From contig JAFQYM010000004.1 of the NCBI GenBank assembly GCA_017406465.1, forward strand, positions 10,570 to 74,569: 64,000 nt of DNA. The letters are read 5' to 3'. The notes beneath the pieces are model-generated. The model did no database searches. It was not told the DNA's origin and saw only the letters and a list, made by a program, of their open reading frames with translations. The translations under genes and the position numbers were made by a program. Shown piece after piece: positions 37,602 through 41,573 of this stretch. Within the stretch, counting starts at the first letter, position 1. Each line of letters starts with the position of its first letter. This stretch comes from Kiritimatiellia bacterium. GTDB taxonomy: Bacteria; Verrucomicrobiota; Kiritimatiellia; RFP12; UBA1067.

Positions 37602-40328
37602 CTACTTCGCCGGGTTGCCTTCGCCGACGCCGATGCAGAGGGACCATTCGAGCGGACCCCAGCCGTTCTCGACGCGCATGAGGATGCGGTTCCGCCCGCG
37701 CTTGAGATGCACGAGCCGGAATCCCTCGGAGATCTGCCAGGGCTTGAGCTTGTTGGAGGACCCCCAGACGGGCTGTCCGTTCAGCCACACGTCGCTGCGG
37801 TCGTCCGATCCGACGGCGAACCAGACGTCGCCCTCGGTATCCGAGAACACTTCGGCGTACGCGTACCAGATTTCGTACTGGTGGTCGCCGTTGAGCTTGA
37901 CGCGCGCCTTGAACGGCGCGCCCCACCATTCGCGGACGGAGGACTGCGCCTGCATGAACCGCCAGCCGACCATCTTGCCGTCCTTGCCGGGATAGGTCGC
38001 GTCGAGGTCGATGACGGATTCCGGCGGGAACTTGCGGCGGAGGTTCACGCGGTTCGGGTTCGGGAACGGACCGATCACATACCAGGAGTTGACGTACATC
38101 CACTTCGCGGGAATTCCGCCGAAGTTCTCCTGGACGCCCGTCGGAAGCCTGCCGAAGCGCACCACGTTGCCGGCGATGAGGTCGGGCATCGAGCCCTGCA
38201 GCGGACCAGGTCCGCCGCCGCCGAAGAGCGCGTCCTTCTGGCCGCTTCCCTGCTTCGCACGACGTCCGCCGCTGTCGTCGGCCTTCTGCGAGCCGGGAAT
38301 CCCCTGCGCCGCGGCTTCGCCCTCTCCTTCGGACGACGAGGGCCGATTGCGCTGGACGGCGGCGACGTTCTTGACGCGCTGCGACTCGTCCTCGGCGGCG
38401 GCCTCCGAGAGCGCGAGCTGGTAGTCGGCGTCCGCGCTCATCGCCGCGAGGCGCTCGGCGCGGGCCTCCGCGGAATCCCTGTCCTTGAAGTTCTCCTCCG
38501 TGAGCCATTCGACCTTTTCGCCGCGGGAGCTCCTGGACCCGGAGGAGGACTTCGCCGCGAAGTCGGGCTTGACGATCTTCATGGCGTCCTCCATCATGGC
38601 CTTCGACGACTCGACGATGTTGTCCGCCTCGCGCATGACATCGGCCTCCGCCACCTTCTGCGCGTCGAGGGCCGACTTCGTCCTCACCCTCGCCTCGAGG
38701 GCCTCGCGGGTCTTCTCGTCGAGCTCCATGCGCTCGGTGCGCGCGACGTCGGTGAGCTTCTGCGCGGCCTTGTAGCTCATGCGGCGGCTTATCGCCGTCT
38801 CGGTCGCCTTGATGTCCTTGTAGTTCTCGGTGATCTTCGCCTCCATCTCCTTAGCGAGTTCGTACGCGGCGACGAGCTTCATGGAGGAGAGGTTCCTGCG
38901 GACCATCTCGCTGTCACGGAATTCCTCGGACGCGAGCTTCTCGAGACTGGGCGTGTCGTTCGCGAGGGCTTCGCGAACCGCGGCGAGCTTCTTCGCGAGC
39001 TCCTCCTGATCCTTGCGCACCTTCTGCAGGTTCTCGACCTGGGCGTGCGTTCCCTTCTCGCGGCGGGTCTTCTCGATTTCCATGAGGGCGTTCTCCTTCT
39101 CGCGTATGCGCTCCTCGGCTTTCGCGATGTTCGCCTTTGCGTCCTCCTCGTTCTTCCGCGCGCGCTCCTCGCTGCGCTCCTCGTTCTTTTCGCGGTGGAC
39201 GGCGGAATTGTACTCGTTCTGCCTGCGGCGGGCTTCTTCGTTCGCCCTGTGACTCTCGTCGCGCTTCTCGCGGGCGAGCCTCGAGGCGGCGTCGGCCTTC
39301 TGGCGGAGTTCGTTCGCCTTGTTCTTGTCCTCGGTCTTCGAAGCCTGCTCCCTGAGGGATTTCTCCTCGTTCTTCGCCTTCTCGCCCTCGGCATTCGCGG
39401 TCTCGCGCCTCTTCTCGGCATCCTGCCTCTCGGCATCGGCCTTCTTCTGGTCGGCCCTTGCCTGCTCCATGCGCTGGTGCGCCTGCTCGGCGTCCGCCTT
39501 AGCCTTGTCGCGACGCTGCTCCTGCTCGCGCTTCCACTTCTCGTTCTGCTCCTTCTCGCGGCTGTGGTCCAGCGCCTTCGCGAGCTTCGCCGCGGTCTCG
39601 TTTGTTTCGCGCTGGGCGACGTCCTGCCTGGCGGCGACCTCCTTCTGCGCATCCATCGCCTTCTCGGCGGCCTTGGCGGCCTTCGCGAGCCCAGTGAACT
39701 CGGCCTGGATCTGGAGCCTGTCGAGCGCGTTGACGGCCTTCGCCATCTCGTCGACGACCTTCGCGCCGGATTCGAGCATGACGTCCGCGGCGAGCTCGCG
39801 GAGCTTCTTCTGCCTGTTCTCGTCATCGAGGTTCTGCTGCTCCTCGCGGACCAGCTCCTCGACCTTCTGCTCGACCTTGGGCTGCTCCTCCACCGCCTTG
39901 CGCTGGGCCTTCTCCGCCTCGTCCAGCAGCTTCTCGAGCTCGTCCTTCATCGTCCTGGAGTTCTCCTCGGCGAAGTCGTCGTAGTCCTCGAGAAGCTCCT
40001 GCTTCATCATCTCCATGTTGTGCAGGACGGCCTGCATCTCCTCGAGTTCCTCGAGAAGCTCGTTCCTGTGGGCCTCCTCGAGGCGGTCGGAGAGGTCCTC
40101 GAGGCGATCCGCCGAAAGGTCCTCTGCCGGATTCGGGGGCGGCATTTCCTTCTCCTCGAAGACGAGATCCTTCACAGGAGTGCAAAAGATGATGACGGCG
40201 AAGAACGCGACATGCGCGGCGACGGAGAGGAATCCCCAGAGGGGCCCCTGGCGGCGGCGTCTCCTCTCGCGGCGGCGGATGTCGTCGGACTGCAGGCTGA
40301 TGTTGACGCTGTCGCTGTTGTCGCTCAT
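37602..40328 (-). CDS. Giant TonB/TolA-class energy-transducer-like protein: Arg-rich N-terminus, SxxxH TM anchor, very long K/E/A-rich coiled coil, C-terminal galactose-binding-like jelly-roll
   Basis: 908 aa. The anchor is RRRERRRRRQGPLWGFLSVAAHVAFFAVIIF (S35-x3-H39). The coiled coil spans roughly residues 60-640. The C-terminus reads WYVIGPFPNPN...SDVWLNGQPVWG...LKRGRNRILMRVEN. It lies directly downstream of exbB/exbD-like genes. Confidence 0.8.
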   Translation of the reverse strand: MSDNSDSVNISLQSDDIRRRERRRRRQGPLWGFLSVAAHVAFFAVIIFCTPVKDLVFEEKEMPPPNPAEDLSADRLEDLSDRLEEAHRNELLEELEEMQAVLHNMEMMKQELLEDYDDFAEENSRTMKDELEKLLDEAEKAQRKAVEEQPKVEQKVEELVREEQQNLDDENRQKKLRELAADVMLESGAKVVDEMAKAVNALDRLQIQAEFTGLAKAAKAAEKAMDAQKEVAARQDVAQRETNETAAKLAKALDHSREKEQNEKWKREQEQRRDKAKADAEQAHQRMEQARADQKKADAERQDAEKRRETANAEGEKAKNEEKSLREQASKTEDKNKANELRQKADAASRLAREKRDESHRANEEARRRQNEYNSAVHREKNEERSEERARKNEEDAKANIAKAEERIREKENALMEIEKTRREKGTHAQVENLQKVRKDQEELAKKLAAVREALANDTPSLEKLASEEFRDSEMVRRNLSSMKLVAAYELAKEMEAKITENYKDIKATETAISRRMSYKAAQKLTDVARTERMELDEKTREALEARVRTKSALDAQKVAEADVMREADNIVESSKAMMEDAMKIVKPDFAAKSSSGSRSSRGEKVEWLTEENFKDRDSAEARAERLAAMSADADYQLALSEAAAEDESQRVKNVAAVQRNRPSSSEGEGEAAAQGIPGSQKADDSGGRRAKQGSGQKDALFGGGGPGPLQGSMPDLIAGNVVRFGRLPTGVQENFGGIPAKWMYVNSWYVIGPFPNPNRVNLRRKFPPESVIDLDATYPGKDGKMVGWRFMQAQSSVREWWGAPFKARVKLNGDHQYEIWYAYAEVFSDTEGDVWFAVGSDDRSDVWLNGQPVWGSSNKLKPWQISEGFRLVHLKRGRNRILMRVENGWGPLEWSLCIGVGEGNPAK

Positions 40329-40338
40329 GGCCGGCAGA

Positions 40339-40752
40339 TCACCTTATGTCGGTCGCGGTGTGGATGCCGACCACCGTGAGCCCCTCGCCCTGGCAGGTGT
40401 CGAGCACCTGGACAATCGAGCGGAACGGCGCGAAGACGTCGCCGTTTATCCTGATGCGGCGGTCGGGGTTCTCCTTCGCGGCGTTCGCGAGGGCGTTCTT
40501 GAGTCCGGCGTCGCCGACCGGCTTCGAGTTCACGAACAGCTCGCCCTTCGCGTTCACCGAGACGGTGATGAGGTCGGGGGTCGACTTGACGTCGCGCGTC
40601 GTGTTGGCGCGGGGGAGCTCGATGGGAAGCTCCTTCTCGACCTTCTTCAGCTGGGAGGAAACCAGGAAGAATATGAGCATCAGGAAGATGCAGTCCATCA
40701 TCGAGGTCATCTGGATCTCGATGTGCTCTTCCTCTTCGTACTTGACGGCCAT
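40339..40752 (-). CDS. ExbD/TolR-family biopolymer transport protein
   Basis: 137 aa. The sequence IEIQMTSMMDCIFLMLIFFLV is the conserved Asp-containing TM helix of the ExbD/TolR fold. Confidence 0.85.
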   Translation of the reverse strand: MAVKYEEEEHIEIQMTSMMDCIFLMLIFFLVSSQLKKVEKELPIELPRANTTRDVKSTPDLITVSVNAKGELFVNSKPVGDAGLKNALANAAKENPDRRIRINGDVFAPFRSIVQVLDTCQGEGLTVVGIHTATDIR

Positions 40753-40772
40753 CTCCTATGCCTCCGGAACGG

Positions 40773-41573
40773 TTAGCGCCTGATGAAGACCTGGTTGACG
40801 AGGTCTGATATCTCCTCCTCGAGGAGCACGGAGAAGAGGTTCAGCCTGCCCTTGATGTAGTTGTAGGCGAAGAGGCACGGCATGGAGACCGCAAGGCCCG
40901 CGACCGTCGTTATGAGCGCCTGGCCGATGTCGTCGGCGAGGACGGACGCGTCGCCCATCTCGCCCATGGCGGCGACGGTGCCGAACGCGCCGAGGAGGCC
41001 GAGAACCGTCCCGAAGAGTCCGAGAAGCGGCGAGAGCGTCGCGGTCGTCGCGAGCATCGCGCTCTTGCGGTTCTCGAGCCTGAGCTCGCGCCCCGCCTTG
41101 TCCTCGGCGAACTGCTTCACCTCCTGGTAGTCCTTGGAATCCCCGTGCTGGAGCATCGTCTCGACGACGCGCGCGAGCATCGAGCGGTTCCTGGTGCAGA
41201 GCGCGGCGACCTCGTCCGTCTTGCCGCTCTTCCAGAGCTCGATCACCTTCGCGGAGAATCCGTCCGGGACGATCCGGGAGCGGCGCATGTTCCAGAAGCG
41301 CTCGAGCGCGCAGCCGAGTCCGAGGATGGAGAGGAGCCCGATGAACCACATCGTCTTGCCGCCCTGCTTGATGTAGGTCGCCCACTGGTCGAGCGCGGTG
41401 ATCTCCTTCGGCGCCTCCGCCTCGGCGGCGGCCTCGGCCCCCTCCGCTGGCGCGGCCTCGGCGGCGGCGGGCTCGACCCCCTCCGCCGGCTTAGCGGCCT
41501 CCTGCGCGAGAATTCCCTTGAGCCACACGGCGCCCGCAAGCGCGAGCGCGACGACCAGCATTTGCTTTTTCAT
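40773..41573 (-). CDS. MotA/TolQ/ExbB-family proton channel protein
   Basis: 266 aa. A signal and A/E/P-rich N-terminus is followed by TM helices, with the motif LGLFGTVLGLLGAF...ALITTVAGLAV. Confidence 0.85.
   Translation of the reverse strand: MKKQMLVVALALAGAVWLKGILAQEAAKPAEGVEPAAAEAAPAEGAEAAAEAEAPKEITALDQWATYIKQGGKTMWFIGLLSILGLGCALERFWNMRRSRIVPDGFSAKVIELWKSGKTDEVAALCTRNRSMLARVVETMLQHGDSKDYQEVKQFAEDKAGRELRLENRKSAMLATTATLSPLLGLFGTVLGLLGAFGTVAAMGEMGDASVLADDIGQALITTVAGLAVSMPCLFAYNYIKGRLNLFSVLLEEEISDLVNQVFIRR

Follow-up and report, generated by a model that had tools for sequence, protein, structure and literature searches.

The Ton and Tol systems are the textbook routes by which the energy of the inner membrane reaches the outer envelope in diderm bacteria. 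To our knowledge, the Kiritimatiellota and many Planctomycetes and Lentisphaerae possess no recognisable TonB or TolA. Here we report on a stretch of 64,000 nt from a Kiritimatiellia bacterium (assembly GCA_017406465.1, contig JAFQYM010000004.1; hereafter the window), in which genes for an ExbB/TolQ-type and an ExbD/TolR-type protein are followed by a gene for a 908-aa protein with a single transmembrane (TM) helix, a long charged stalk and a C-terminal head. On balance, the three genes probably constitute a self-contained operon for an envelope machine of the Ton/Tol class that is driven by the proton-motive force (PMF) and carries a new output domain.

Among published systems, the nearest precedent is the group of transducers with a von Willebrand A (vWA) head and an SHLS motif in the TM helix, described from Planctomycetes–Verrucomicrobia–Chlamydiae (PVC) bacteria, Bacteroidetes and Proteobacteria, with Tichowtungia as an example (Mol Biol Evol 2025, PMC12204202). 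Cryo-EM shows that TonB and TolA dock onto their motors through the SHLS motif (PMC12204202). The 908-aa protein resembles the vWA-headed proteins in having an SHLS-type TM helix, encoded beside tolQ/tolR-like genes, and a head that is neither that of TonB nor that of TolA; both families are found in Kiritimatiellota, Verrucomicrobia and Planctomycetes. However, in the vWA units the vWA head sits on a linker of about 100 residues and the locus includes two heterologous TolR genes together with a tetratricopeptide repeat (TPR) gene, whereas the present unit has a single ExbD and no TPR gene, and its beta-sandwich, which resembles PA14 and the galactose-binding domain (GBD), is preceded by about 600 residues of helical stalk. 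The terms "jelly", "PA14", "sandwich" and "galactose" do not occur in PMC12204202 or its supplement, and a literature search with partial journal coverage, which included transposon studies of Akkermansia, returned for this transducer family only that vWA-head paper.

Putative docking helix, motor and conservation of the unit

An earlier interpretation of this DNA, made from the letters and open reading frames (ORFs) and here called the sequence-only reading, had credited the 908-aa protein with an Arg-rich cytoplasmic N-terminus and a single TM helix carrying S35-x3-H39, and both features are present. The N-terminus (SDDIRRRERRRRRQ) contains the run RRRERRRRRQ, and a motif of the form [LF]xSD[DE][IV]RxRERxRRR recurs in the N-termini of the Kiritimatiellia homologues. 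The only hydrophobic segment of the protein lies at approximately residues 28–50, with S35 and H39 inside it; together with W31, I46 and T50, the last of which is situated just past the helix, they give the pattern S35-x3-H39-x6-I46-x3-T50. Homologous loci were collected by a pattern scan of one genome per species, which produced 245 loci, 79 of which were kept. In 71 of 72 loci, the gene immediately behind that of ExbD was found to encode a TM helix with S-x3-H, as compared with 8 of 348 control TM-like windows (2.3%), and the full S-x3-H-x6-[LIVMF]-x3-[ST] pattern was displayed by 48 of the 72. The family logo reads W(-8)...S(-4)..L(-1)H(0)...[LI](+7)...T(+11)P(+12)V[RK]x[LI][VI]F, in which positions +7 and +11 match the spacing of S16/H20/L27/S31 in TonB. 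A likeness to TolA is also apparent, in the single N-terminal TM helix and the S-x3-H-x6-L-x3-S-type spacing: the transducer family reads SFVLHVVLFGAIV... and resembles the TM segment of E. coli TolA, which we take to be SAVLHVILFAAL.

The helix is followed directly by the segment TPVKDLVFE. Its pattern, P[VLI][KR]x[LIVM][VILM], was observed in 49 of the 72 loci and in 57 of them in a relaxed form; in the monomer model, residues 50–67, which include this motif, are disordered. The D-box of TonB (QPISVTMVTPAD) and the R-box of TolA add a strand to the ExbD/TolR dimer (PMC10907165, PMC12905483). The post-TM motif resembles these boxes in position and pattern and may therefore be D-box-like.

Both motor proteins were recognised by Pfam, ExbB as PF01618 MotA_ExbB (E=1e-28, 99.8 bits against a cut-off of 22.9) and ExbD as PF02472 (E=3e-29, 102.2 bits against 25.4). 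The NCBIfam scores leaned to TolQ (67 bits) and TolR (58 bits) over ExbB (46) and ExbD (43), yet all were far below the curated equivalog cut-offs of 127–221, none of which was reached; we have consequently placed the motor in a generic ExbBD/TolQR class. ExbB aligns with both TolQ (8odt) and ExbB (5sv0) of E. coli, its GLFGTVLG and ALITTVAGL..P..AYN segments falling opposite the pore-lining Thr motifs of TolQ 8odt, while residues 10–130 of ExbD align with E. coli ExbD (6tyi), which pairs D20 with the Asp in the TM segment of the E. coli protein, FIDVMLVLLIIFMV. Judged by these alignments, the motor is a predicted 5:2 motor of this class with conserved channel residues. ExbB begins with a signal-peptide-like stretch followed by an Ala/Glu/Pro-rich extension of about 40 residues, which varies more among close relatives than any other part of the unit (85–90% identity relative to locus L003) and which recalls the "long ExbB" of Serratia (PMC9008036). 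An assignment of the three proteins to Zorya or another MotAB-like anti-phage system was considered and rejected, given that none of them matched a PADLOC defence model.

The unit is widely distributed. The loci come from Kiritimatiellia, Lentisphaerae, Verrucomicrobiota, Planctomycetota (Planctomycetaceae, Phycisphaerae and Brocadiia), Armatimonadota, KSB1 and Sumerlaeota, and the window itself matches the rumen metagenome-assembled genomes RUG12088, RUG14632 and RUG673. ExbD lies directly upstream of the transducer in 72 of 80 loci (48 with a fused and 24 with a split transducer); six of the eight others are cut by contig ends, so that 72 of the 74 evaluable loci, from several phyla, are motor-linked. 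The sequence-only reading had made its case depend on SxxxH and on synteny with exbBD being kept elsewhere, and the loci bear it out on both counts. Three word-indexed searches gave only proteins of up to 370 aa (the one with residues 1–140 returned 11 short fragments), and full-length homologues were instead obtained from the genome loci and from an exhaustive profile search. In the latter, 1.84 billion cluster representatives yielded 10,467 proteins at E<=1e-3; 4,442 representatives belonged to the same head family at E<=1e-10 and 708 at E<=1e-30. Most members are 650–950 aa long with the domain at the extreme C-terminus, and the source names seen were all "hypothetical protein" except for that of one protein, P0296.

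A conserved partner gene near the unit was sought in two ways in the 79 loci. The commonest neighbour cluster was present in only 5–6 loci, and no neighbour of the TonB-dependent transporter (TBDT), SusD-like, carbohydrate-active enzyme (CAZyme), transporter, TolB or Pal type was conserved across them. The unit is self-contained, with no outer-membrane partner encoded alongside.

Stalk, head and the forms of the family

In the AlphaFold2 (AF2) model of the full-length protein, helices were assigned to residues 68–164, 170–331, 335–424, 428–469, 474–583 and 611–644, followed by disorder at 661–716 and a beta-sandwich at approximately 717–900; global confidence was low (pLDDT 69, pTM 0.39), but the secondary structure was clear. 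Lys, Arg, Glu and Asp account for 44–56% of residues ~55–660. Conservation among 51 fused homologues revealed modules at 76–150, 196–240, 481–585 and 631–660 that flank a variable spacer, the latter being marked by low occupancy and many indels. Residues 241–424 are only 5–10% hydrophobic and more than 50% charged, with dense i/i+4 pairs of opposite charge, whereas the flanking modules are 24–27% hydrophobic. The central stalk is an ER/K-type or TolA-domain-II-like helix, not a canonical heptad coiled coil; of the K/E/A/R-rich coiled-coil region proposed earlier, the charged helical stalk stands, but the coiled coil is only partly accurate, given the scarcity of hydrophobic residues in 241–424. 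Stalk length is very variable among the loci, from 490 to 1150 aa. Between stalk and head lies a poorly conserved linker (pLDDT <50 at 668–707). The protein does not have the proline-rich periplasmic linker of TonB, its only Pro-rich element being a short PPPNP.

For the C-terminus, a galactose-binding-like jelly-roll of about 190 aa had been proposed in place of a TonB or TolA domain. The AF2 model of the head, built from a 39-sequence alignment (pLDDT 88, pTM 0.86), is all-beta with 12 strands, a beta-sandwich instead of a TonB_C or TolA_III fold. The proposal is thereby borne out at the level of the fold and in recognising a distinct aromatic-rich domain, although the folded part is shorter, about 165 aa (736–900). 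A Foldseek comparison of this model with the PDB gave 78 matches at E<=1e-3, with probability 1.0 and TMq of 0.34–0.51. The best of these (E=5e-5 to 7e-4, TMq up to 0.51) were to PA14, the N-terminal sugar-binding domain of glycoside hydrolase family 2 (GH2) and carbohydrate-binding module family 35 (CBM35); those containing PA14 were the GH3 enzyme BcpE2, the K. marxianus beta-glucosidase, GH31 alpha-xylosidases and the adhesin Cea1A. No TonB or TolA entry was present among the 50 matches listed, and in the 908-aa protein no Pfam or NCBIfam match to TonB_C or TolA_III was detected at E<=1. Scans of this protein with Pfam, NCBIfam and PADLOC returned no match; searches of PDB chain sequences with the head and with the N-terminus gave nothing meaningful, and none of the 39 head homologues matched any Pfam model at E<=10, those for PA14 and carbohydrate binding included.

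At fold level, the modelled head is hence a beta-sandwich of the PA14/GBD type that is uncatalogued in sequence. The head core, GSDD..W.NG..V, resembles the PA14 signature, and PA14/galactose-binding modules of GH3 and GH31 enzymes, Flo/Epa/Cea1 adhesins, GH2 N-terminal domains and CBM35 are its best structural matches; identity to them is 8–16% and TM ~0.5, with no significant Pfam match, and the invariant N-terminal WYxIGPFPNPxR sets the head family apart from all of them. Across phyla, 32 columns of the head are invariant. They include GSDD and ENG as well as numerous Trp, Tyr and Arg positions, a pattern suggestive, but only suggestive, of carbohydrate binding, which in the PA14/GBD-like superfamily often involves Ca2+. 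The similarity of the modelled fold (TM ~0.5) points in the same direction, and it is from the fold that such a function may be supposed.

Relatives of the head occur in other settings. The proteins P0047 (3178 aa) and P0048 (1340 aa) contain seven and four copies of the domain, accompanied in P0047 by CarboxypepD_reg and fn3_3 repeats and in P0048 by weak WD40-like matches; over the GSDD..W.NG core, both show sub-threshold matches to PA14, GH2_N2 and BetaGal. The head domain is therefore used outside the motor context too. P0296, encoded on a JGI metagenome contig of 1560 nt, is a 350-aa protein with a signal peptide, a head domain and then an ExbD-type periplasmic domain (PF02472); it is the sole head homologue with a functional name, and constitutes a single observation on a short contig.

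The transducer is found either as one fused protein (48 loci) or as an anchor with a separate secreted head protein (24 loci). In the split form, ExbD is followed by an anchor of 300–440 aa, with the SxxxH helix and helical modules, and then by a protein of 400–590 aa that consists of a signal peptide, helical modules and the head. The two forms are collinear: at locus L006 the anchor aligns to residues 12–368 of the window protein and the head protein to residues 311–908, and the break point falls within the variable spacer. Since the split forms must assemble non-covalently, the conserved stalk modules probably interact with each other.

Several loci encode more than one transducer. L033–L036 have two tandem fused copies (~836 and 1048–1143 aa) behind one motor, and the series encoded in L006 and L007 runs from an anchor of 360 aa through a head protein of 589 aa to a fused protein of 857 aa. 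L008 of RUG12088 (1494–4009) is a motor-less split pair composed of a 300-aa SxxxH anchor and a 538-aa signal-peptide head protein; the two genes are translationally coupled (4-nt overlap) and lie directly downstream of a GH5 cellulase gene, with no ExbB or ExbD gene upstream on the contig. An interpretation of L008 as an anchorless paralogue was discarded, as the SxxxH anchor gene precedes the head gene; the pair recalls the orphan TonB paralogues. L048 (7850–10570) encodes a fused orphan of 906 aa with an SxxxH TM helix; the 7.8 kb upstream contain neither ExbB nor ExbD. The unit also appears in unrelated surroundings: L002 (RUG12088, 6658–10638) and L004 (RUG673, 6668–10634) match window positions 37597–41577 with 99.0% and 96.9% DNA identity, from 4 nt upstream of the exbB ATG to at most 5 nt past the stop codon of the 908-aa gene, and their flanks are unrelated to the window. 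At the syntenic locus L003 (4831–13474), the 908-aa gene is 98.5–99.8% identical and thrS 92–94%. These comparisons suggest a recent, cassette-like exchange of the three-gene unit among rumen genomes.

With TolA, the transducer shares its position directly after a TolQ/TolR-like pair, motor scores that slightly favour TolQ/TolR, and an architecture in which a long, charged alpha-helical domain II (helices 68–644 with an ER/K-like centre) leads to a globular C-terminal head. It differs from TolA in that the head is a 165-aa beta-sandwich and not the alpha/beta domain TolA_III, the stalk, with conserved modules inside it, is 2–3 times longer, the family includes split and multi-copy forms, the unit is not accompanied in the 79 loci by tolB, pal, cpoB or ybgC, and sequence homology is not detectable between the two proteins. 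With TonB it has in common the SHLS-type TM helix, the strand-like motif that succeeds this helix where TonB has its D-box, an ExbB/ExbD operon of its own, and several paralogues and motor-less orphan copies per genome; unlike TonB, it has no proline-rich linker, TonB_C domain or linked TBDT, and its post-TM motif is nearer to the membrane than the D-box.

Operon structure and genomic setting

Within the window, the three minus-strand ORFs, their order and their coordinates (Table 1) were all reproduced as described before, as were the gaps of 20 nt between exbB and exbD and 10 nt between exbD and the 908-aa gene. A further 89 nt separate the latter from thrS (Pfam: tRNA-synt_2b, HGTP_anticodon, tRNA_SAD), and the Pfam scan identified dnaJ and grpE upstream of exbB. 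A Shine-Dalgarno-like AGGTGA overlaps the exbD stop codon, 10 nt 5' of the ATG of the 908-aa gene, and a ribosome-binding site (GGAGG/AGGAG) precedes the exbD ATG. The promoter-like site listed in the table is located in the 197-nt gap between dnaJ and exbB; two such sites were seen compared with 0.3 expected in shuffled sequences. No terminator-like site was found between the three genes, save for one weak match within the exbD coding sequence, and the total number of terminator-like sites equalled that in shuffles. The short gaps, the Shine-Dalgarno sequence overlapping the exbD stop, the lack of an intergenic terminator and the promoter-like site are the grounds on which exbB, exbD and the 908-aa gene fit a single operon. 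On the plus strand, a 942-aa ORF (37551–40379) was treated as a GC-rich antisense artefact, because it is the minus-strand frame that is conserved across phyla. Neither tolB nor pal nor a TBDT gene is present among the window ORFs scanned, in agreement with the earlier statement that thrS comes next instead of tolB or pal.

Table 1. Coordinates in the window of the three-gene unit, its promoter-like site and the segments of the 908-aa protein
Feature	Position	Strand	Remarks
exbB (ExbB/TolQ-type)	40773-41573	minus	266-aa ORF
exbD (ExbD/TolR-type)	40339-40752	minus	137-aa ORF
Transducer gene, stop codon included	37602-40328	minus	908-aa ORF
Promoter-like site TTCCCA-18-TAGAAT, extended -10 TG	41628..41657	minus	Consensus match only; upstream of exbB
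Cytoplasmic N-terminus, residues 1-28, Arg-rich	40245..40328	minus	Sequence composition
TM helix, residues 29-49, SHLS-type motor-docking motif	40182..40244	minus	Hydropathy and helix in model
Post-TM motif TPVKDLVFE, residues 50-58, candidate D-box/R-box-like strand	40155..40181	minus	Family conservation
Alpha-helical stalk, residues 68-660	38349..40127	minus	Model helices and conservation map of 51 fused homologues
Variable ER/K-rich spacer, residues 241-435, where the split forms are divided	39024..39608	minus	Composition, alignment
Gly/Ser/Pro-rich flexible linker, residues 661-735	38124..38348	minus	Composition
Beta-sandwich head, residues 736-900 (WYxIGPFPNPxR ... GSDD ... ENG)	37629..38123	minus	AF2 model, Foldseek

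Some other features of the window were recorded. A BatA-type, membrane-anchored vWA protein is encoded 4.6 kb upstream of exbB (46191–47294, minus strand); it was considered as a transducer of the published vWA type and rejected, its TM helices being devoid of S-x3-H and no motor gene being adjacent, and it is probably not one of those proteins. A low-GC island at ~14000–22000 (44–50% GC compared with ~62% elsewhere in the window) holds the gene for a 1836-aa protein with BACON, Listeria-Bacteroides-repeat and Laminin_G_3 domains (16608–22118) and, at 15439–16668, that of a BspA-type leucine-rich-repeat protein; the island is possibly horizontally acquired DNA for surface proteins. An exosortase (EpsH) with a DUF3485 domain adjoins a family-4 glycosyltransferase (10824–12347 and 8932–10827, minus strand), which indicates a PEP-CTERM/exosortase protein-sorting system in this genome. 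Finally, a Ser/Thr protein kinase fused to an FGE-sulfatase-like domain is encoded at 24611–26215 on the minus strand.

Proposed mechanism, alternative explanations and implications

The following mechanism may be put forward for the unit. The helix bearing S35 and H39 would bind the outside of the ExbB pentamer, as the helices of TonB and TolA do, and the TPVKDLVFE segment would, like a D-box or R-box, be captured as a beta-strand by the periplasmic dimer of ExbD. The flow of protons could then pull or reel in the long, mostly alpha-helical stalk, a presumed counterpart of TolA domain II with conserved bundling modules on either side of the ER/K spacer, while the lectin-like head would keep its grip on a conserved partner at the wall or outer membrane. 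Acting in this way, the system might stand in for Tol/Ton in lineages in which TolA and TonB frequently go undetected. The sequence-only reading had already pictured a PMF-driven transducer whose very long stalk bears a putative carbohydrate- or cell-surface-binding module, a picture that the tests of fold, SxxxH and synteny support. Given the conservation of the head across phyla, and since the unit is not accompanied by a transporter, TolB or Pal gene, we favour a conserved envelope ligand over variable nutrient glycans, with peptidoglycan, an outer-membrane glycoconjugate or a conserved motif of an outer-membrane protein as the candidates. A more specific version, a proton-driven "glycan winch" whose head would grip a carbohydrate polymer directly, be it peptidoglycan strands or an incoming polysaccharide, appears to us unlikely.

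Evidence can be cited both for a Tol-like role, with tethering of the envelope as the output, and for a Ton-like one, with gated import. The former is favoured by the helical domain II, by the housekeeping context of the window (dnaJ, grpE, thrS) and by the reported absence of TolA from the PVC lineages concerned (PMC12204202); for one Lentisphaerae genome, the entry "tolQ-tolR-???- No TolA found" was made although TolB and Pal are present (PMC12204202). The multiple paralogues, the GH5 neighbour and the cassette-like exchange speak for a Ton-like or accessory role.

A number of observations weigh against the machine as we have described it. A sequence search of PDB chains detected no homology of the N-terminus with TonB or TolA, for which reason the docking motif of the TM helix could be convergent, and the post-TM motif lies ~2–8 residues after the helix as opposed to 10–15 for the D-box. 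The fold similarity of the head is modest (TM ~0.5) and no carbohydrate-binding model of Pfam matches it. At a pTM of 0.39, the full-length model is too uncertain for the packing of the helices, and some 500 helical residues, if fully extended, would reach ~750 Å, far beyond a typical periplasm. Planctomycetes are reported to have no Pal (PMC12204202), and TolB/Pal can therefore not be a universal target. The cassette-like exchange, the multiple paralogues and the GH5-adjacent paralogue would suit an accessory or nutrient role at least as well as a housekeeping one in the envelope.

Such a role is embodied in a Ton-like nutrient machine, in which the transducer would supply the energy for bringing polysaccharides or other large substrates in through the outer membrane and the head would grip the glycan itself or a conserved motif on outer-membrane channels. 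In its fold, the head belongs to the class of the carbohydrate-binding modules. A motor can have several transducer paralogues, and orphan pairs without a motor occur, as they do among TonB paralogues, one orphan pair adjoining a GH5 cellulase; the unit was seemingly exchanged recently between rumen genomes, as is typical of accessory traits, and polysaccharide-degrading PVC bacteria often have no TonB. The lineages that carry the unit are, moreover, glycan specialists. Yet no TBDT, SusD-like, CAZyme or transporter gene is conserved beside the unit in the 79 loci, and the window context is a housekeeping one. The 32 invariant columns of the head likewise argue against diverse nutrient glycans, though a conserved transporter "box" would fit them. 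We consider this explanation possible but rather unlikely. That the 908-aa gene is merely a low-complexity, K/E-rich ORF lying by chance or by annotation error behind exbBD, with a random S-x3-H, has practically no probability: the stalk is indeed compositionally biased and overlapped by the 942-aa antisense ORF, but this reading was ruled out by the synteny in 72 of 74 loci across phyla and by the frequency of S-x3-H relative to the controls, and it is also at odds with the conserved helical modules and the confidently folded, strongly conserved head.

Two further explanations retain a motor-linked protein and assign it a different task, and each seems to us quite improbable. The motor might move a head-bearing stalk in a machine for surface motility, adhesion or secretion like Agl-Glt or the proposed vWA transducers, and so drive gliding, pilus or fibre dynamics, or export. 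Gliding has been suggested for vWA transducers of the same lineages (PMC12204202), PA14-like domains occur in adhesins, with Cea1A among the fold matches, and the giant proteins P0047 and P0048 have 4–7 copies of the domain; against this, no motility, secretin or pilus genes are conserved near the 79 loci, and the fused protein is anchored in the inner membrane, with nothing to point to a crossing of the outer one. We also know of no gliders among the rumen Kiritimatiellia. Instead of transducing force, the protein could serve the ExbBD-like motor as a passive periplasmic scaffold or ruler, a wall anchor or a regulator, its head tethering the motor to peptidoglycan, for instance, while the real output lies elsewhere. 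P0296 does tie a head to a stator part by fusing it to an ExbD-type periplasmic domain, and a stalk that varies between 490 and 1150 aa implies that a fixed reach may not matter. P0296 is, however, a single contig of 1.5 kb, no alternative output protein is conserved in the unit, and the SHLS pattern together with the post-TM motif are elements of bona fide transducers (PMC12204202).

Returning to the PMF-driven transducer, the family retains the motor-docking motif and exchanges the output domain for a lectin-type beta-sandwich, and its natural fused and split forms are ready-made constructs for dissecting how force is transferred along the stalk. If the proposed function is true, the catalogue of outputs of 5:2 motors would be extended, the family would be a candidate for the "missing TolA/TonB" of PVC bacteria, and it might explain by what means glycan specialists transport or retain material at the outer membrane; thousands of genes could be better annotated, and a new entry for the domain family would be justified. 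Should the head indeed pull on sugar chains, it would represent a third mechanistic class of envelope force transducer, one acting on glycans in place of a TonB-box or TolB/Pal protein partner, and would be the main energiser of outer-envelope processes such as the uptake of whole polysaccharides in PVC-type bacteria without TonB or TolA. The family may be the means by which Kiritimatiellia, Verrucomicrobia, Planctomycetes and allied phyla drive processes in their outer envelope.

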